Positions 1 to 11,486 of a DNA stretch of 64,000 bases are shown piece after piece (positions within the stretch are counted from its first letter, which is position 1; each line of letters starts with the position of its first letter). The stretch lies in contig CAVZDD010000003.1 in the NCBI GenBank assembly GCA_963773945.1, positions 370,060-434,059 of the forward strand, in the 5' to 3' direction. The notes beneath the pieces are model-generated. The model was not told the origin of the DNA. It worked only from the letters and a program-made list of their open reading frames with translations, and searched no databases. The DNA comes from an uncultured Thermoplasmata archaeon (GTDB taxonomy: Archaea; Thermoplasmatota; Thermoplasmata; Lutacidiplasmatales; UBA184). The position numbers and the translations under genes were made by a program.

Positions 1-836
1 CCGCCGAGATCGAAGCCAAACTGATCGTCGGCGCCGATGGAGTGGCGAGTGCGGTTGCGCGCGCTTTCCGGTTGCGCCGTCCGGTGGAGATCCTTCCAGC
101 GTTCGAAGCCGAGTTCCCGGAATCCCCCGGCGACCCGGACCTCGTGGAGGTCTACCTGGGCAACACCATCGCTCCCGGGCTCTTCGGCTGGTGGATCCCG
201 GATGGGAGCGGTGGGGCGCGGGTGGGCGTGGCCGCGAACGCCGATGGCACCTCCGCACGCACCTATTACGAACATCTCCTCACACAGATCGCTCGCCGCT
301 ACGGCCAACCCTTGCGCAACGCGTCGAGCTACCTGGTATCCGGGATTCCGATCGGAGAAGTACCGAAAATCTCTGGTTCCCGAGTCCTCCTCGTCGGGGA
401 TTCCGCGGCGCAGCCGAAACCGCTCTCGGGCGGCGGGATCTACACAGGGATGCGCGCCGCCGAGCTCGCGGCGGAAGTGGCGCATGAGGCGCTGCTCGCC
501 GGCGACCTCTCGGCGGTGCGACTCTCCCGATACGATGACGCGTGGCACCGGGAGTTTGGGGACGAATTCGATAAGGCGCAGTACCTCCGCCGGCTCTTCC
601 TCAAGTTCACCGACGCCGAGCTCGAAGCGATCCTCGGGGCCCTCCAGGAGGCCGGCACCACGGAGACGATCGTGGCGTTCGGCGACATCGACTTCCCGAC
701 GCACGTCGTGCGTCGGCTGCTCCGTCAGTCTCCGTCGCTGCTACGGCTCTTGCCGAAGGCCGTCGGGGCGCTCTGGGGCGGAGACAAACGGCGCGCCCCG
801 GATTTGGACTTCCCTTCCGACCGGGTCCACCAGTAG
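1..836 (+). CDS. Geranylgeranyl reductase-family FAD-dependent oxidoreductase (5' partial, continues upstream of window)
   Basis: Frame open from position 3; translated AEIEAKLIVGADGVASAVARAF... matches the C-terminal half of the GGR/FAD-oxidoreductase family; the ORF track shows 42..836. Confidence 0.7.
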   Translation, partial: AEIEAKLIVGADGVASAVARAFRLRRPVEILPAFEAEFPESPGDPDLVEVYLGNTIAPGLFGWWIPDGSGGARVGVAANADGTSARTYYEHLLTQIARRYGQPLRNASSYLVSGIPIGEVPKISGSRVLLVGDSAAQPKPLSGGGIYTGMRAAELAAEVAHEALLAGDLSAVRLSRYDDAWHREFGDEFDKAQYLRRLFLKFTDAELEAILGALQEAGTTETIVAFGDIDFPTHVVRRLLRQSPSLLRLLPKAVGALWGGDKRRAPDLDFPSDRVHQ

Positions 837-1348
837 CCGCCCAGGGCCGCCAGACCGAGGCCCACACCGAGCACAACGTAGAGCACCACGGGTGTGGCCG
901 CCCCTCGGACCAGTATGGAGGTCTCCGGCACGATGCCGGATACGCCCAGTTGGCTCGCGTTGATCGTCGGAGTACCGTTGGGATACTGGGTCGCGCTGGC
1001 CCACGCACTCGCAGAGAAGAATCCTCTGGATTCGAGGAGGTACGAAACATTCGACATCGTGAAGGTGACGGCGAACCGGACGGCGTAATCCCCCGAGGCC
1101 GCCGAGGCCGGCACCGCGACCGGGACGCTCCAGTTCCACGACGTGTTGGGCGCGAGGAGGGGGGGCGCGATCGTGTAGCTCAGGCCCCCGCTCAGGGTCG
1201 GTGTCGCGCCGGCCGGGGGTGCCTGGGTTGCGCCGCCGTCAGTAGGGTTGAACGCATAGACCTGTAGGGAGACGTTCGCGGAGACGATCTCCTGGGCGAG
1301 AGGGTCCCCGACTCGGAAGGTCACCGACCCGGAGCCTCCAGGAATCAA
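725..1348 (-). CDS. Hypothetical secreted/membrane-anchored protein (N-glyc sequon-rich, C-terminal TM helix)
   Basis: 207-aa ORF with a TTG start; S/T/A/N-rich with NVS/NTS/NGT/NAS sequons and a C-terminal hydrophobic helix (VVLYVVLGVGLGLAALGGYWW); overlaps the 3' end of the GGR gene by ~110 nt on the opposite strand; no clear N-terminal signal peptide. Confidence 0.4.
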   Translation of the reverse strand: MIPGGSGSVTFRVGDPLAQEIVSANVSLQVYAFNPTDGGATQAPPAGATPTLSGGLSYTIAPPLLAPNTSWNWSVPVAVPASAASGDYAVRFAVTFTMSNVSYLLESRGFFSASAWASATQYPNGTPTINASQLGVSGIVPETSILVRGAATPVVLYVVLGVGLGLAALGGYWWTRSEGKSKSGARRLSPPQSAPTAFGKSRSSDGD

Positions 1349-1513
1349 CGAGGGTCCGACGAGGAACCCGAGGATGGGGCTCCAGTCCCGATCCGGAAGT
1401 ACGGGTACGCCGCGAAAACCGGCGCGACCAGGCCCGGGACGACCAACAGAACGCTCGCCCCGAGGGCCACGAGCAATGTCCCGGTCCCGCGTACTCGGCG
1501 GCCGAACCGCCGT

Positions 1514-2416
1514 TCAGACACCTGGCTCCCCCTCGAAGGCCCCGGACTCCGCCAGCGCGACGAGACGGCGGATCCGTCGGTAGGCCTCTTGGTGTCCGTG
1601 CCGGCCCGCGAGCCGGAGGAAGCCCGGGAACGGTCGCGGCGTCGACGGTTCGGGTAGTGTCAGGGCCTTGTAGAGGGCGCGCGCGAGCGCCATCGGACGG
1701 TGGGTCATCCGCGCCGCGTCGAGGTCCGCGCGGAACTCTTCCCGAGTCGTCAAGCTCCGGGCCAGGTAGGTCAGTAGCGGGTCCCAGGCCATCATCTGGG
1801 CAAACGTCCGCAGGAACGTGAGGTACCGGGAATCGAGTCCGCGGATATGGCCGAGCTCGTGCGCGATCACCGCGTCGAGTTCGTCCGGGGCGAGCACGGC
1901 GCGCAAGCCCCGGGAGAGGAGAATCACGTCCCGTCGATAGGGCAGGCGTCGTTCGCGCAGTCCGGGTTCGACCAGCGTGAACGAAAACGCCTCCGCGGCG
2001 GCCGATTCGAACTCGAGCAACGTGGTGGGCGCATCGGGGAGCGGAAGGTCGGCCGGCCACGGCACACTGGACGTGGGCAGGATCTTCAAGAGACCATGGC
2101 CGACCAGCTGGTTCAGGAAGAAGGCGACCGTGAAGACGCCGAGCGCTCCTAGGGCGCCGGTGACCCAAACTAGCGTCCAGCGGCTCTGGAAGAGCAGGAG
2201 AGGGGAGTGAACCAGCGCGAGTACGGCCTCGACCCCGCCGTTGAACAGCACCCAGACGAGAACGGTGGTCGCGAGCACGGCCCACAGAGCCAGGAACGTC
2301 GCCGCGAGCCGGAGCACAAGCCGGGGGGTCGATTTTCGAAAGGCCACGAGCAGCCCCACCCCCGTCGCGATCCATACCCCGACGGGCAGGTACAGGAGCG
2401 CCGATGCCGCGCTCAC
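1514..2416 (-). CDS. BlaR1/MecR1-like M56-family membrane zinc metallopeptidase (sensor/antirepressor protease)
   Basis: N-terminal multi-TM region followed by an HEXXH motif (IAHELGHIRG); sits 13 nt downstream of the BlaI-like repressor gene on the same strand. Confidence 0.75.
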   Translation of the reverse strand: MSAASALLYLPVGVWIATGVGLLVAFRKSTPRLVLRLAATFLALWAVLATTVLVWVLFNGGVEAVLALVHSPLLLFQSRWTLVWVTGALGALGVFTVAFFLNQLVGHGLLKILPTSSVPWPADLPLPDAPTTLLEFESAAAEAFSFTLVEPGLRERRLPYRRDVILLSRGLRAVLAPDELDAVIAHELGHIRGLDSRYLTFLRTFAQMMAWDPLLTYLARSLTTREEFRADLDAARMTHRPMALARALYKALTLPEPSTPRPFPGFLRLAGRHGHQEAYRRIRRLVALAESGAFEGEPGV

Positions 2417-2429
2417 GGCGCCCCTCCCC

Positions 2430-2816
2430 CTAGTCGAGGCCGAGGCGCCGACGGAGTTCGCGCTCCTCGGCGGGATGCAGCTTCGAGAGTTCCTCGTTGA
2501 GGTGCACGACCCCGGAGGGCCCGAACATCCGGACGACGCCCTTCACGAGATCGCTGAGATACCGATGCTCGAGATTGGGCGCGTATCGGTACACGTACCG
2601 CTCCCCGCCGCGGCACGTCTCGCGCCGCCGCCGGACAAGTCCTTTGGCAAAGAGGCGTCCCAGGATGGTCGCGACCGTGGTGTACGCCACGTGCGTGCCC
2701 CGCTTCGCGAGGTCGGCCCGTATCCGGGCCGCGGGAGCCTCTTCCAGGTCCCGTAGCGAGACCAGGACCTTCGACTCGAGTGCGCCGAGCAAGGGACTCT
2801 CCGAGTGAATCTGCAC
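2430..2816 (-). CDS. BlaI/MecI/CopY-family transcriptional repressor (penicillinase-repressor fold)
   Basis: 128 aa with a GTG start; winged-helix N-terminus (LGALESKVLVSLRDLEEAPAARIRADLAKRGTHVAYTTVATILGRLFAKGLV) and a C-terminal dimerisation helix; immediately upstream of the BlaR1-like gene. Confidence 0.8.
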   Translation of the reverse strand: MQIHSESPLLGALESKVLVSLRDLEEAPAARIRADLAKRGTHVAYTTVATILGRLFAKGLVRRRRETCRGGERYVYRYAPNLEHRYLSDLVKGVVRMFGPSGVVHLNEELSKLHPAEERELRRRLGLD

Positions 2817-2830
2817 GGGGGGGCACCTTA

Positions 2831-2859
2831 ACCATTACCCGTTCGAATGGTACGAACGG
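2831..2859. promoter_or_regulatory. Crossing inverted repeats (candidate operator) in the divergent blaI-like / cysteine-operon intergenic region
   Basis: ACCATT(2831-2836)/AATGGT(2846-2851) interleaved with CCGTTCG(2839-2845)/CGAACGG(2853-2859); lies in the 109-bp gap between divergently transcribed genes. Confidence 0.4.
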
Positions 2860-2925
2860 TACGGTCAGCTCCATTCCGGATGCGGGGTAGAACCTACCCA
2901 CAGATAAGCACCCTTAGGCGTTAAG

Positions 2926-4353
2926 GTGGGAATCGCCTCTGGGCGACGTGTGGCCGCTCCCCCGGGCTCCAATCCTCGCTCGATTCTCGACCTGATCGGG
3001 CACACGCCCCTGATCCCGCTGAACCGTGTCGCGAAAGGCTACCCTTACCGGATCCTGGCCAAACTCGAGTATCTCAACCCCGGAGGGTCGGTCAAGGACC
3101 GGATCGGTCCCAGCATGGTCGATGCCGCCGAAGCGAAGGGACTTCTCAAGCCCGGCGGAACGATCATCGAGGCGACCAGCGGGAACACGGGCGTCGGCCT
3201 TGCGTTGGTCGCTGCGGTACGAGGATACCACGCCGTATTCGTCATCCCGGACAAGATGAGCTCGGAGAAGATCCGCCTCCTCCGCGCCTTCGGCGCCCGG
3301 GTGGTAATCACGCCCAGCCAGCTGCCCCCGGACCACCCCATGAGCCACTACTCGGTCGCCAAACGGCTCTCGAAGGAGATCCCGAATTCGTACTACCCGA
3401 ACCAGTACCAGAATCCCGAGAATCCGGACGCCCACTACCGAACGACCGCGCCGGAGATCGATACGGGGGCGGGAGAGTCGCTCTCGGCCGTCGTGGCGAC
3501 GATCGGCACGGGCGGCACGATCAGCGGGATCGGGCGGTACTTCAAGGAACACCGGCCGTCGGTGAAGGTCATCGCGGTCGACCCGAAGGGGTCGATTCTC
3601 CAGCACTACTTCGAGACCCATGAGATGATCCGGGCCACGCCGTACAAGGTCGAAGGCATCGGGGAGGACATGATCCCCAGGACGGTAGACTTCCGCCAGA
3701 TGGACGAGTTCGTCCAGGTCGACGATAAAGAATCCTTCCTCATGGCCCGGCGATTGGCCCGGGAGGAGGGGTTGTTCGTCGGCGGCTCGTCGGGCTCCGC
3801 CGTGGCCGGCGCGCTCAAGTGGCTCGCCCGCCGGCCCATCCCCGAGGGCACGACGGTGGTCGTCCTCCTCCCGGACTCGGGCGACCGGTACCTGTCCAAG
3901 TTCTATTCCGACGAGTGGATGCGGGAGAATCGGTTCCTCGACGAGGGCGCTACCGCGGGCGATCTCGTCCGGGGAAAGGACGTGGCGCCGGCGCTCGTCG
4001 CGGTCGAGCCGACCACGCTGGTTCGCGATGCGCTCGACCTGCTACAGCGCCACTCGATCTCTCAGTTGCCGGTCCTGGCGGGAAAGGAGAACGTCGGGAG
4101 CGTCGTGGAAGAGGAGATCTTGCGGGCCGTGCTCTCGGACCAGACGGTGGTCGAGCGGACCGTCACGGCGGTGATGGGCCCGACGTTCCCCGAGGTCCGC
4201 GAAGACGAACCGATCGGCGATGTACTGCGTCGGCTCAAGGAGATTCGGGCGCTATTGGTGCGAGACTCGACCAGCGGCCAGGTGCTGGGCCTGCTCACCC
4301 GGCATGACTTATTGACCTACCTTTCCGAGCGGGGGGCGCAGAATGCGGCTTGA
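2926..4353 (+). CDS. Cystathionine beta-synthase-like PLP enzyme (cysteine-synthase fold plus C-terminal tandem CBS domains)
   Basis: Motifs LIGHTPLIPLNRV, SVKDRIG and GNTG/TGGT (PLP-binding fold), plus a C-terminal CBS-domain pair; 11-nt overlap with the next gene. Confidence 0.85.
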   Translation: MGIASGRRVAAPPGSNPRSILDLIGHTPLIPLNRVAKGYPYRILAKLEYLNPGGSVKDRIGPSMVDAAEAKGLLKPGGTIIEATSGNTGVGLALVAAVRGYHAVFVIPDKMSSEKIRLLRAFGARVVITPSQLPPDHPMSHYSVAKRLSKEIPNSYYPNQYQNPENPDAHYRTTAPEIDTGAGESLSAVVATIGTGGTISGIGRYFKEHRPSVKVIAVDPKGSILQHYFETHEMIRATPYKVEGIGEDMIPRTVDFRQMDEFVQVDDKESFLMARRLAREEGLFVGGSSGSAVAGALKWLARRPIPEGTTVVVLLPDSGDRYLSKFYSDEWMRENRFLDEGATAGDLVRGKDVAPALVAVEPTTLVRDALDLLQRHSISQLPVLAGKENVGSVVEEEILRAVLSDQTVVERTVTAVMGPTFPEVREDEPIGDVLRRLKEIRALLVRDSTSGQVLGLLTRHDLLTYLSERGAQNAA

Positions 4354-8371: not shown

Positions 8372-11300
8372 CATTTCGGTCCATGCCGGCGGCAAACTCA
8401 TCATCGAAAACCTGACGATCGACTGGGTGCAGTTTATCGGCACCTCGGGCACGATCGCCCAGCGCCTCGCCAACGTGTTCTGGTTCAGCGATGCCGGAAC
8501 TACCACCCTCTACAATTCCACGATCACCACCGACCCCTACGTCTTGAACGCCTTCGCCAAGCTCAACGTCTCGGTGACCGGCGAACTCGTCGTCTCGGCG
8601 CACAGCGCCTTCGAGTTCCCCGGATGGGTCACCGTGAGCGCCGGAGGCAGCCTCTTCTTCAACGACAGCACCAGCACGAACAACCCCCAGATCACCGCCG
8701 GAACGGTCAACTCGGCCATCGCCTACGATGAGGCCTGGTCCCCGGCACTCCAGACGGTCGGTGGCGGACAGATCTTCCTCGGCGACAGCATCGTCGAGAA
8801 TTACTACGCCGACAATTACGGCGCGAACGGCGTCCCGGGCCCCCAAATGGTGGGGAACAACGAGACCCAGACCCCGGATTACAATTGGGGCGGTTTCGGC
8901 TTCGCTCCGCCGGTCGCCGAAGGCATCGCCCAGGGATATGCCTGGGAAAAGCAACCAATCGCGAGCGGCATCCTCCAGATCGGCTACGTCACCTTCGCGT
9001 CCTACACCGCTCCCGCCGGGAGCACCTTCTCGTACCAAGGAACGGCCTACCCGCTCGGGTCGATCAACTTCGGCCTCGCCCCTGGGGGGACCCTCATCGA
9101 CGTCCCGCTCGGAGCATCGGCCATCGCTGCCGTCAACGCGGCCGGCGGCGCGGCGCCCTTCCTGCAGAACAGCGGCCAGTTCGGGACCGCCTCCGCGGAG
9201 TCCGCGGCCTTCAACTTCGGCATCAGCGACGTGAACATCACGAGCTTCCAGGTCATTCTCTACCCCGAGTTCCAGTTCAACATCACCGCGAGCGGCGCCG
9301 GTTCCCAGATCACCGCCGCCGACAGCACCCTCGGCATCAACTTCGCCGCCGTACCGGGGACGCCGGTCGCCCTCGGAACCCCGCCGCCGACACCGTGGGA
9401 TTCCCAGAAGCTCCTGGTTTCGGGAGGCGCCAACGCCTACCTCGGGAACATCACGGTCCTCGGGACCCCCTTCCAGCCATTCAACGACTCCTCCGCCGTC
9501 ATCCCGTCGGGGACGAGCCAGGCGTACTTCTACCAGTGGCTCAAGGTTCCGATCACCGGTGGCCGGAACGCCATCCCGGTGGCGAACGGGTCGACCGTCC
9601 CCGTCTACGCTGGCTCTAACGCCACCCTGGCCGCCACCGTCCTGGGCCTCAATGACCTGGCCAGCACCGACCCGATCCTCGCAACTTACGTCTCGGACGC
9701 CCTTGCCGCGCGCGGGCTTGCTCCCTCGGTGTCCGGCGGCGAAGGCGTCTCCTGGAGCATGCTCCTCTCCACCATCGTGGAGAGTTCGTTGCTGCCCACG
9801 GGTCAGTTCGTCGGGGTGTACAACGTCACGGTCACCGTCCCGCCCGGCCTGCCCGGCGAGGTCACCACGGTTGCCGCGTCCCTCACACCGTATCCCCAGG
9901 TCGTCACCCCGGGGTTCCCCTCGACCTCACCTCCGGCGGCCTTCCCCAACTACGAGGCCATCCTGGGCCTGTCGAGCATCCAGTCCCTGGTCCTTAGTGT
10001 AGCGAATACGACGGTGGCGATTGGCCAGACCCTTGTGATCAACGCCACCATCCAGAACCTCGGTACTGCTCCGACCAATAACTACACGGTCGAACTCACC
10101 TACCCCGAGCTCGCGGGCAACATCATAGTCGCGACCTCGGGGCACATCACCGCCCCGATCGCCGCGGGCGCGACCAAGGTCGTGCCGCTGACCTGGCTGG
10201 TCAACGAGACCGTCACCGGGCTTCAGGACAAGGCCCAATTCGTGGTGAGCTTCGGCGTGACGGCGATCTGGAACGGGGGCCTGCCGGATGGCGGCACGAA
10301 CTCGACCTCGATTGCCATCACCATCACCCCCGCCTTCATCTCGATCAGCTACACGCTGCCGACGGGGAAGCTGCCCACCAATACCAACACCATCGATTCC
10401 TCTGGCGTCGCGACCTTCGCCGGGAAGGGCGCCGCTACGCTCACGGTGCTGGCGGTCCGGGGCACCTCGAGCTACGTCCTTGCGGTGTACTCCCCGATCA
10501 CCAGCGGCACGACTTTCGAGACCGACCTCAACGCCGTCTCGGGCATGACGCCGGGCGACACCTACGTCATCTGGCTTCAGGTGACCTACAACGATAGGAC
10601 CTTCACGCAGTCGTACAGCCCCGGCCTCACCGTCGCGGGCAGCACGAGCTCGAACTTCCTGCTGACGAAAATCCTCGGTATCCCGCTCTGGATCTGGCTC
10701 GTCATCGCCGCCGGTATCATCGTCGCCGTCCTGGGCGTCATGTTCGGGCTGGGCCGGTTCGCTCGCGGCCGACTCGTCGAATGCGGCGAGTGCGGGAACC
10801 TCATCCCGGAGGACGCCACCGTGTGTCCGAAGTGCGGGGCCGAGTTCGAGACCGACCTCGTCCGCTGCAGTCGCTGTGGCTCCACGATCCCCTCGTCCTC
10901 GGCTGTCTGTCCGGAGTGCGCCGCGACGCTGCTCGCCCGGGCCGGCCCGGAGAACGCCGATCCGGAGCGCCAGAGCTACGCCGACTTCGTCGAGCGGTTC
11001 CGTACCGAAGCCAAGAAGGAACTCGGGCAGAATTACAGCGAGGGGGCGTTCTGGGACTGGTGGAAGCGCCAGCCGAGCTACGTCTCGTTCAACCAGTGGC
11101 GCCTCCAGCAGGCGCAGGGCACCCGGACCGGCATGACCGCCCCGGTCATGACCGAGGCCGACGACCGCGACGTGACGACCGCGACGGCTCCGAAGCGCCC
11201 ACCCTCCGGTGGCGCCCCGCCCGCCGGAGGGGCCGCCGCCTCCACGGGGAGGGCTCCCGCGTCCCGGACACCCCCGGCCACCCGCACCGCTCCGGCCGCC

Positions 11301-11486
11301 GCGGCGGCACCCGCCAGCCCGGCCGCCTATGTCCCCGCTCCGCAGCCCGCCGCCGCTCCGACGATGTCCGGCGCGGCGCCCGCCATGCCGGCGGGCGCTT
11401 CGGGTATGAAGAACTGCCCCAACTGCGGCAAGCAGATCAACGCGGACTTCCTCGTCTGTCCGTTCTGCGGTTCCGTGACCGGGTAA
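8298..11486 (+). CDS. Large type-I membrane surface (glyco)protein with a cytoplasmic triple zinc-ribbon tail
   Basis: Track ORF 8427..11486; the same frame stays open and protein-like upstream to 8298 (SSLAGQTVVLTPGTTGSSTYYEAGNISVHAGGKLIIENLTIDW). Beta-helix-like, N-glyc sequon-rich ectodomain; TM helix (ILGIPLWIWLVIAAGIIVAVLGVMFGLG); then CGECGN..CPKCG, CSRCGS..CPECA, a Pro/Ala linker and CPNCGK..CPFCG. Confidence 0.75.
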   Translation, partial: SSLAGQTVVLTPGTTGSSTYYEAGNISVHAGGKLIIENLTIDWVQFIGTSGTIAQRLANVFWFSDAGTTTLYNSTITTDPYVLNAFAKLNVSVTGELVVSAHSAFEFPGWVTVSAGGSLFFNDSTSTNNPQITAGTVNSAIAYDEAWSPALQTVGGGQIFLGDSIVENYYADNYGANGVPGPQMVGNNETQTPDYNWGGFGFAPPVAEGIAQGYAWEKQPIASGILQIGYVTFASYTAPAGSTFSYQGTAYPLGSINFGLAPGGTLIDVPLGASAIAAVNAAGGAAPFLQNSGQFGTASAESAAFNFGISDVNITSFQVILYPEFQFNITASGAGSQITAADSTLGINFAAVPGTPVALGTPPPTPWDSQKLLVSGGANAYLGNITVLGTPFQPFNDSSAVIPSGTSQAYFYQWLKVPITGGRNAIPVANGSTVPVYAGSNATLAATVLGLNDLASTDPILATYVSDALAARGLAPSVSGGEGVSWSMLLSTIVESSLLPTGQFVGVYNVTVTVPPGLPGEVTTVAASLTPYPQVVTPGFPSTSPPAAFPNYEAILGLSSIQSLVLSVANTTVAIGQTLVINATIQNLGTAPTNNYTVELTYPELAGNIIVATSGHITAPIAAGATKVVPLTWLVNETVTGLQDKAQFVVSFGVTAIWNGGLPDGGTNSTSIAITITPAFISISYTLPTGKLPTNTNTIDSSGVATFAGKGAATLTVLAVRGTSSYVLAVYSPITSGTTFETDLNAVSGMTPGDTYVIWLQVTYNDRTFTQSYSPGLTVAGSTSSNFLLTKILGIPLWIWLVIAAGIIVAVLGVMFGLGRFARGRLVECGECGNLIPEDATVCPKCGAEFETDLVRCSRCGSTIPSSSAVCPECAATLLARAGPENADPERQSYADFVERFRTEAKKELGQNYSEGAFWDWWKRQPSYVSFNQWRLQQAQGTRTGMTAPVMTEADDRDVTTATAPKRPPSGGAPPAGGAAASTGRAPASRTPPATRTAPAAAAAPASPAAYVPAPQPAAAPTMSGAAPAMPAGASGMKNCPNCGKQINADFLVCPFCGSVTG

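Follow-up and report, generated by a model that had tools for sequence, protein, structure and literature searches.

A 64-kb stretch of DNA from an uncultured soil Thermoplasmata archaeon (contig CAVZDD010000003.1; the whole stretch is called the window below) carries, at positions 725–2792 of its minus strand, a module of three genes that encode a regulator of the BlaI/MecI/CopY family, a membrane zinc protease and an immunoglobulin (Ig)-like surface protein. The module is divergent from a CBS-CGL-CysRS operon. In BlaI/BlaR-type systems, signals cross the membrane through a protease that cuts a repressor, and an original prediction, made from the letters of the window, had proposed a pair of this kind here. 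Our comparison builds on relatives of the protease found in a scan of one genome per species, which returned 128 stretches, of which 80 were kept. All 80 loci are from Thermoplasmata/Thermoplasmatota metagenome-assembled genomes (MAGs), including Ca. Lutacidiplasma silvani, with the exception of one record titled 'bacterium isolate clean3188' (L056, DAIDCO010000046.1). Its genes nevertheless follow the archaeal order, from CBS through regulator, protease and third gene to the reductase, and it is probably an archaeal contig that was mislabelled or mis-binned. Microflora Danica and SPRUCE sites are where the MAGs come from. The window and its six closest relatives (76–80% protease identity) are referred to as the window clade, and loci with 50–62% protease identity as the larger clade. 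Promoters were compared across the upstream regions of 78 loci, aligned on the regulator start.

The first two genes appear in the window as minus-strand open reading frames (ORFs) of 128 amino acids (2430–2816) and 300 amino acids (1514–2416) that are 13 nucleotides (nt) apart, and no paralogue of either was found within the window. The regulator was predicted as a 128-residue BlaI/MecI/CopY repressor, of which the family stands and the length does not. In an alignment of the intergenic DNA, the TTG/GTG start codon at 2792 is kept across the seven members of the window clade and the GTG at 2816 is not, and homologues are nearly all 119–120 residues long (the identical NCBI protein, P0121, has 120), so the gene is placed at 2430–2792 on the minus strand and encodes a predicted winged-helix protein of 120 residues, a length in keeping with the approximately 120–130 residues of family members, which have an N-terminal winged helix and a C-terminal helical dimerization domain. 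A possible ribosome-binding site, GGAG (2799–2802, minus strand), lies 6 nt before the TTG and is kept in the seven clade members amid varying bases. The family assignment is borne out by Pfam Penicillinase_R (PF03965), which scores the match at 47.1 bits (cut-off 22.6) and aligns ORF residues 10–125 to model positions 1–113 of 115; all MarR, TrmB and PadR Pfam matches to the ORF are under their cut-offs. PF03965 is present in 120 of 120 regulator homologues among the matches listed, and NCBI names the protein BlaI/MecI/CopY. A search of PDB with the single sequence is marginal (E 0.49) and a family profile is required: built from 18 homologues, it finds Mycobacterium tuberculosis Rv1846c (PDB 2g9w) as the best solved relative and aligns to MecI residues 10–117.

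The C-terminal stretch FGPxGVVHLNEE is invariant across the 18 regulator homologues. BlaR1 cuts BlaI at N101|F102 (PMC9834060), and the corresponding bond in MecI, within the segment SLVLN101|F102VE, falls on L98-N99 of the archaeal regulator by residue counting in the HMMER alignment. The invariant GVVHLNEE (residues 94–101 of the 120-residue protein, codons at 2490–2513 on the minus strand) hence coincides with the known scissile bond to within one residue, which is suggestive of a cleavage region. The lone cysteine of the protein (Cys60, 2613–2615) is likewise invariant; it belongs to an extended wing, ETCRGGER, which exceeds the wing of M. tuberculosis BlaI in length. Given the adjoining cysteine-synthesis operon, Cys60 might conceivably act in a thiol or redox response.

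The second gene (1514–2416, minus strand) encodes a sensor-less BlaR-like membrane zinc protease of 300 residues, as judged by Pfam, AlphaFold2 and hhalign. Its AlphaFold2 model (predicted local distance difference test score, pLDDT, 79.6) has three N-terminal transmembrane (TM) helices at residues 10–28, 31–59 and 78–112, followed by the protease domain. The HELGH zinc-binding motif (H186–H190; 1847–1861, minus strand) is invariant in 16 homologues, as are D195 and the gluzincin ExxxD third-ligand motif EFRAD (E227–D231; 1724–1738, minus strand). The family profile aligns without gaps to 75 residues of Staphylococcus aureus BlaR1 (173–247), and H201, H205, E242 and D246 of the BlaR1 motifs H201EYAH205 and E242VEAD246 fall on the zinc motifs of the protease. 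The distance from H190 to E227, 37 residues, is the same as in BlaR1 (motif positions from PMC9834060), and the HExxH/ExxxD active site would lie on the cytoplasmic side of the membrane. A penicillin-binding (transpeptidase) sensor domain is absent from the protease, which has no Pfam match outside the protease domain; approximately 94% of M56 proteins lack such a domain, which marks only canonical BlaR1 (PMC13492132).

The protease passes Pfam Peptidase_M48 (PF01435) with 39.6 bits against a cut-off of 20.3, and many of its orthologues carry a precomputed Peptidase_M56 (PF05569) match. Foldseek places ZMPSTE24/Ste24 at the top and also finds BlaR1, with probabilities of 0.99–1.0, but a fold search cannot tell M48 from M56 here because the TM-scores are 0.34–0.37 for both. 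An exhaustive hidden Markov model (HMM) search returns a small core family and then a second tier of proteins of approximately 295–330 residues. Several of these tier-2 proteases exceed the M56 cut-off (34–43 bits) as well as that for M48, one is named 'M56 family metallopeptidase [Thermoplasmata archaeon]', and hhalign connects the window family to the tier-2 family with a probability of 100% (E 3e-41) over 279 columns that include the membrane part. On the tier-2 metagenome contigs (L082–L091), there is a 4-nt overlap between the gene of the protease and that of a BlaI-like protein (Penicillinase_R, 57 bits). The neighbours are unlike those in the window: NrfD and 4Fe-4S genes lie upstream of the pair, and genes for an Ig-like membrane protein (DUF1573) and a DsbD-like protein lie downstream of it. 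Hence, the pairing of regulator and protease recurs independently of the window synteny. Such pairing is a hallmark of BlaR-like proteins, as 96% of M56 proteins are encoded within five genes of a BlaI-like gene (PMC13492132). It is the homology to M56-passing relatives, together with the gene context, that affiliates the archaeal protease with M56.

The gene at 725–1348 was predicted to encode a glycosylated surface or membrane protein, possibly the cargo or sensor partner. A membrane protein in the same unit is indeed encoded there, but this ORF is only the 3′ part of a longer gene (725–1521, minus strand) that encodes 265 residues when repaired. One G has been lost from CCG-GTA, which reads CCGTA, near 1401/1402, and this frameshift splits the gene into ORFs of 58 (1345–1521) and 207 residues (725–1348), whereas the gene is in one frame in all relatives. 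The frameshift is most likely an assembly error, probably of the long-read kind, since NCBI P0241, a protein of another assembly, and the repaired protein are 100% identical. On the 2-Mb contig with the protease of the window (P0001), the third protein is called only in a truncated form of 199 residues, and other homopolymer-type frameshifts may be present in the contig of the window.

The three genes lie side by side in all loci of sufficient length. The gap between regulator and protease genes is 6–28 nt in 76 loci, and in 63 of 76 the start of the third gene overlaps the protease stop codon by exactly 8 nt, a conserved overlap that makes the three genes an operon. The third protein has an N-terminal signal or anchor helix, an Ig-like beta-sandwich with six N-glycosylation sequons, a C-terminal TM helix and a cytoplasmic tail; the AlphaFold2 model (pLDDT 77) places the sandwich at residues 51–205 and the TM helix at 212–235 and leaves the tail disordered. 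Pfam gives only sub-threshold NEW3 matches to it, a fold search finds nothing beyond generic cohesin/Ig domains, and the family is restricted to this lineage (89 database matches). Conservation peaks at LESRGFFS, at LGVSGxxPE just outside the membrane and at the cytoplasmic end, where AFGKSRxxDGD is invariant. That a surface protein keeps an invariant cytoplasmic tail argues for a specific intracellular partner. Because of this tail and the 8-nt coupling to a sensor-less protease, the third protein is the best candidate for an input or gatekeeper, although it could equally be a regulated output.

Upstream of the regulator gene lies a putative operator array (2841–2866) of three GTWCGWAC-type boxes at 9-bp spacing, which read GTTCGAAT (2841–2848), GTACGAAC (2850–2857) and GTACGGTC (2859–2866) on the plus strand. 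Two crossing inverted repeats had been described at 2831–2859, and a repeat search locates both: CCGTTCG/CGAACGG at 2839–2845/2853–2859 and ACCATT/AATGGT at 2831–2836/2846–2851. Among random 109-mers from a Markov-1 model, 13% contain a 7-nt inverted repeat and only 0.37% the crossing 7+6 arrangement, the latter in a test that was chosen post hoc. Conservation, rather than repeat statistics, is the real evidence for the proposed operator. The block 2826–2882 is nearly invariant in the six closest relatives and the flanking non-coding DNA is variable; the central 18 bases of the array show 100% conservation within the window clade. Instead of two crossing palindromes, the repeats are better read as three tandem pseudo-palindromic 8-bp boxes. 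The array includes the CCGTTCG/CGAACGG arms, which correspond to the outer half of the first and of the second box, and the ACCATT/AATGGT pair links the operator to the spacer, with the arm at 2831–2836 in the spacer adjoining the TATA box. The ACCATT arm is broken without compensation in L003 and has no counterpart in the larger clade. What stands of the predicted overlapping dimer operators is a putative protein-binding operator rather than hairpins, in the form of tandem boxes and not of crossing palindromes.

In the larger clade, the array takes the form of an 18-bp site, GTWCGWAC-NN-GTWCGTTC, whose end precedes TTAAGG by 16 nt in 50 of 53 loci and by 17 nt in the other 3. With the flanks included, CG cores stand 9–10 bp apart at -5, +4, +14 and +24 and TTAAGG at +35, so that the array comprises up to four phased boxes and reaches the position of the TFB-recognition element (BRE); the fourth box, TCCG, is weaker, with CG at +24 in 53% of the sites. 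The left box is either GTACGAAC or its reverse complement GTTCGTAC, and both orientations are to be expected if recognition is of the palindromic bases GT.CG.AC. The array of the window clade stops 9 nt short of TTAAGG (2826–2831, minus strand), which lies 39 nt upstream of the TTG. TTAAGG is the most conserved promoter element in all clades, 34–47 nt from the start codon, and is probably the TATA box of the regulator operon. This assignment draws on conservation and the fixed operator spacing, because TTAAGG is not over-represented upstream of the window genes (6 versus 5.1 expected), a survey made uninformative by gene calls that are too crude.

Boxes with at most one mismatch occur 1.6 times per 80-nt promoter window versus 0.1 expected, an approximately 15-fold excess, and one or more are present in 73 of 78 promoters. 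Across 842 kb of related loci, a position-weight matrix gives 56 matches of 17 bits or higher, 55 of which are in the regulator promoter; as the matrix was trained on those promoter sites, the informative result is that matches are almost lacking elsewhere. Because a matrix trained on the larger clade misfits the window clade (spacing of 9 versus 10 bp), the excess was counted on single boxes. A second tandem site with at most one mismatch was not found in the window, where matches with two or three mismatches exist, and matches to the 10-bp-spaced pattern in the window are no commoner than chance. The five promoters without a recognizable GTWCGWAC box within 80 nt (L010, L014, L024, L025 and L077) all have TTAA(A/G)G. 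L024 is Ca. Lutacidiplasma silvani, and its subclade (L008, L009, L012, L017 and L024) has CGAAC-containing sequences instead; here the operator is diverged or degenerate.

The start of the divergent CBS-like gene is in all likelihood the conserved GTG at 2950 and not position 2926, so the intergenic region between the conserved starts at 2792 and 2950 is 2793–2949, or 157 bp, and the 109-bp shared region originally described must be revised. A probable TATA box of the CBS-CGL-CysRS operon, TTAAGG at 2921–2926 (plus strand), lies 23 nt before this GTG, and the larger clade shows matching geometry with TTTATGG or TTAATGG approximately 23 nt before the GTG. With a TATA box at so short a distance, the CBS operon mRNA would be leaderless. 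The two probable TATA boxes form the arms of a perfect 9-nt inverted repeat, CACCTTAAC (2824–2832) and GTTAAGGTG (2920–2928), 87 nt apart. Exact 9-mer identity is common only to the window and L001, and the symmetry is therefore promoter consensus and not a separate element.

That the regulator would also control the CBS/CGL/CysRS operon, passing a thiol or sulfur signal on to cysteine synthesis, is in line with the divergent arrangement kept in approximately 70 of 80 loci and with the one invariant cysteine at the wing tip (ETCRGGER). However, the distance from operator to CBS start varies from 61 to 187 nt (standard deviation 24.6) while that to the TATA box of the regulator operon is fixed, the boxes in the window lie approximately 55–80 nt upstream of the CBS TATA box, and no second site is found near the CBS genes. 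The array is retained in L019, L043 and L044 although CBS is 428–1599 nt away, and in L020 and L052, which have no CBS gene within the fetched 6 kb; the wing cysteine, in turn, is missing from tier-2 regulators. We therefore regard shared control as very unlikely, and the predicted control of a CBS/CGL/CysRS/ADH operon finds no backing in these distances. Autoregulation of the three-gene operon, also part of the original prediction, is supported by the comparison, since the operator is phased to the TATA box of its own operon and stays with the regulator where the CBS operon is elsewhere. A reading of the repeats as an RNA structure (a leader or attenuator) and not a protein site is extremely improbable. 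The minus strand of 2817–2925 does fold at -39.5 kcal/mol, but this corresponds to a modest z-score of -1.83, with 10 of 200 shuffled sequences folding equally well, and Rfam finds no family in the window (nor does ARAGORN find a tRNA there). The element is upstream of both probable TATA boxes and so probably untranscribed, one box is found in either orientation, and the half-sites of the larger clade are 2 nt apart, too short for a hairpin loop.

We consider it probable, with some reserve, that the module is a non-canonical (sensor-less) BlaI/BlaR-type system of regulated proteolysis in a self-regulated three-gene operon. BlaI-family dimers would bind the phased GTWCGWAC array directly upstream of their own BRE/TATA, and occupancy of the array would set transcription of the regulator, protease and surface-protein genes, with repression as the most likely direction. 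The protease would be held in the membrane by its three helices with the HExxH/ExxxD site in the cytoplasm and, upon a membrane or envelope signal, would cut the regulator in the C-terminal GVVHLNEE; the cut regulator would then leave the DNA and the operon would be induced. As the protease is sensor-less, the translationally coupled Ig-like membrane protein would be the best candidate for the input or the main output. The regulated-proteolysis step is plausible to much the same degree as the whole. A more specific version, offered tentatively and rather unlikely to be right in full, is a three-component archaeal device for transmembrane signalling in which the glycosylated Ig-like protein with its invariant tail, the product of a gene of its own, would be a detachable sensor or gatekeeper of the sensor-less BlaR-type protease, which would destroy a BlaI-type factor on a phased four-box array next to BRE/TATA.

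Several observations weigh against regulated proteolysis of a repressor. The strongest boxes stand upstream of BRE/TATA, where archaeal activators often bind (SurR/TrmBL1-type position rules), and sequence data cannot decide between repression and activation. The protease had been described as an M56 BlaR1-like polytopic zinc protease, of which the HELGH motif and the 13-nt gap hold, whereas the Pfam Peptidase_M56 score is below the cut-off (24.2 bits versus 31) and lower than that for M48. Its top sequence match among solved structures is an HtpX fragment. AlphaFold2 and hydropathy give no fourth TM helix and no extracellular domain, the chain ending at residue 300 with an amphipathic helix, and the protease consequently has no visible sensing surface. 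In the regulator, the aligned scissile residues are L-N-E and not N-F, so that the Asn is present and the P1′ Phe absent, and tier-2 regulators carry HLA(E/Q)RL at the aligned position. The box sequence is unlike the TACA/TGTA of staphylococcal BlaI/MecI (PMC4549145). Finally, the wider neighbourhood is also kept in approximately 70 loci, with CysRS, CGL and CBS divergent and a geranylgeranyl-reductase-like gene convergent, and because the whole neighbourhood is syntenic in the lineage, gene order alone is weak functional evidence; the conserved 8-nt overlap, unlike gene order, is not.

Other accounts of the same genes were considered. The protease could be an HtpX-like quality-control enzyme that forms the output together with the surface protein, with a regulator that is ligand-responsive and autoregulated but never cut. 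The Pfam scores for M48 and M56, the NCBIfam and PDB sequence matches to HtpX, the name 'M48 family metalloprotease' that NCBI gives to some orthologues and the missing sensor domain all agree with this, but the best NCBIfam HtpX equivalog score is 30.5 bits against cut-offs of 245–422 and covers only approximately 40 residues around HExxH. The zinc-motif spacing and gapless alignment are those of BlaR1, close homologues pass M56, the pairing with BlaI is found again in metagenome contigs with other neighbours and is the rule for M56 proteins at 96% (PMC13492132), and the C-terminal segment of the regulator is invariant, which together make this account unlikely. Somewhat harder to credit is a BlaI-family activator that recruits TFB/TBP from the upstream site, in which case proteolysis would switch the operon off. 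The two strongest boxes end 16–17 nt upstream of the TATA box in all 53 loci, outside the core promoter, and such strict phasing suits protein–protein contact. The fourth box, however, extends the array to the BRE, and the last box of the window clade is 9 nt from the TATA box, both of which fit occlusion of TFB, and those bacterial members of the family that the cited papers describe are repressors (PMC4549145, PMC13492132, PMC12565901). Highly improbable, by comparison, is a repressor of the CopY type, which would sense metal and let go of its DNA upon binding copper, without proteolysis: the Pfam family is the same and NCBIfam CopY_TcrY matches weakly, but at 17.6 bits it is far under the cut-off of 121.95, the single cysteine of the regulator is in the wing and no C-terminal CxCxxxxCxC metal site is present, and a protease gene is tightly coupled to the regulator.

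Regulated proteolysis in a self-regulated operon thus remains the reading we favour, and by homology the archaeal system belongs with the non-canonical BlaIR systems, which include M. tuberculosis Rv1846c/Rv1845c, M. abscessus MAB_2415c/2414c, Clostridioides difficile CenIR and Pseudomonas aeruginosa PvmSR (PMC13492132; bioRxiv 10.64898/2026.08.03.742534). As in these, the protease lacks a transpeptidase sensor and the regulator gene is directly upstream of the protease gene, and the M. tuberculosis pair includes the best solved match to the archaeal regulator, Rv1846c. In C. difficile, an exported protein encoded next to CenIR is its main target and the most strongly induced member of the regulon upon CenIR depletion (PMC13492132); the archaeal pair likewise adjoins a gene for a surface protein. 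The non-canonical systems are bacterial, and their proteases are described with four membrane helices and an M56 domain, whereas the archaeal protease has three predicted helices and belongs to a divergent subfamily, and the third gene is translationally coupled to it by the 8-nt overlap.

The canonical S. aureus pairs BlaI/BlaR1 and MecI/MecR1 share with the archaeal system the combination of a BlaI-family winged-helix regulator and a polytopic membrane gluzincin with identical HExxH/ExxxD spacing (PMC9834060), a regulator profile that aligns to MecI over nearly its full length including the scissile region, and an operator at the system's own promoter. The archaeal protease differs from BlaR1 in having neither a penicillin-binding domain nor a fourth TM helix and in staying under the Pfam M56 cut-off; BlaR1 has its protease domain between TM3 and TM4, whereas the archaeal domain follows three helices and then the chain ends. 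The aligned cleavage residues (L-N-E versus N-F) and the boxes (GTWCGWAC versus TACA/TGTA; PMC4549145) differ as well. Unlike in S. aureus, the archaeal system is set in a TATA/BRE promoter and no beta-lactamase or penicillin-binding protein gene is associated with it. To our knowledge, archaea lack peptidoglycan, which leaves beta-lactams without their expected target.

CopY is of the same Pfam family, and the inner site of the larger clade, GAAC-NN-GTTC, shares the 4+2+4 inverted-repeat geometry of the cop box, TACAnnTGTA. The half-site sequence is another one, and in contrast to CopY the archaeal regulator has no cysteine-rich metal site and comes with a coupled protease. HtpX and Ste24 (M48) resemble the archaeal protease in the passed Pfam M48 profile and the top fold matches to Ste24/ZMPSTE24, but it is far under the HtpX equivalog cut-offs and has the zinc-ligand spacing of BlaR1. 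It is also coupled to a BlaI-type regulator, which is, as far as we know, no feature of HtpX or Ste24.

Other features accompany these genes. Distal to the operator, a conserved block reading CTCCATTCCGGA (TCCGGAATGGAG on the minus strand) at 2871–2882 is nearly invariant in the window clade, and some larger-clade loci show CCGGAAT again upstream of the operator. A conserved TTAT/TTAA-containing block of the window clade at 2902–2908 (GATAAGC on the plus strand) precedes the CBS TATA box by 12 nt. The two blocks could be sites of another regulator or a second promoter. The tier-2 BlaI/M56 family (L082–L091, for example L082 3500–6911) has a promoter palindrome of its own, GTACTA-N6-TAGTAC, in which the cores resemble TACA. 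The DUF1573 Ig-like protein that follows the tier-2 pair has a CxC motif and a DsbD_TM-like protein comes next, which hints at a metal- or disulfide-related output. Elsewhere in the window (8427–11486, plus strand), a 1019-residue ORF encodes a very large Ser/Thr/Asn-rich surface protein, probably glycosylated, with one TM segment and a cytoplasmic part with several CxxC zinc-ribbon-like motifs.

Most bacterial BlaI/BlaR-type systems are unrelated to beta-lactams and their signals are unknown (PMC13492132). Our literature search brought up no report of a BlaI/BlaR-type system from archaea, and these genes go unmentioned in the Lutacidiplasmatales paper, although regulator and protease are already correctly named by the automated annotation of NCBI. 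The module is hence an uncharacterized archaeal member of a signalling family known from bacteria and introduces no new principle; its value is in a well-defined operator and a testable cleavage prediction. An uncultured lineage of soil and peat Thermoplasmata that includes Ca. Lutacidiplasma keeps the pair, the coupled surface protein and a sharp operator in at least 80 species-level genomes, which provides a natural case in which to ask how a repressor of bacterial type operates at a TATA/BRE promoter of archaea. If the three-component device were true, regulated proteolysis of a transcription factor would be a membrane-to-promoter pathway of archaea.

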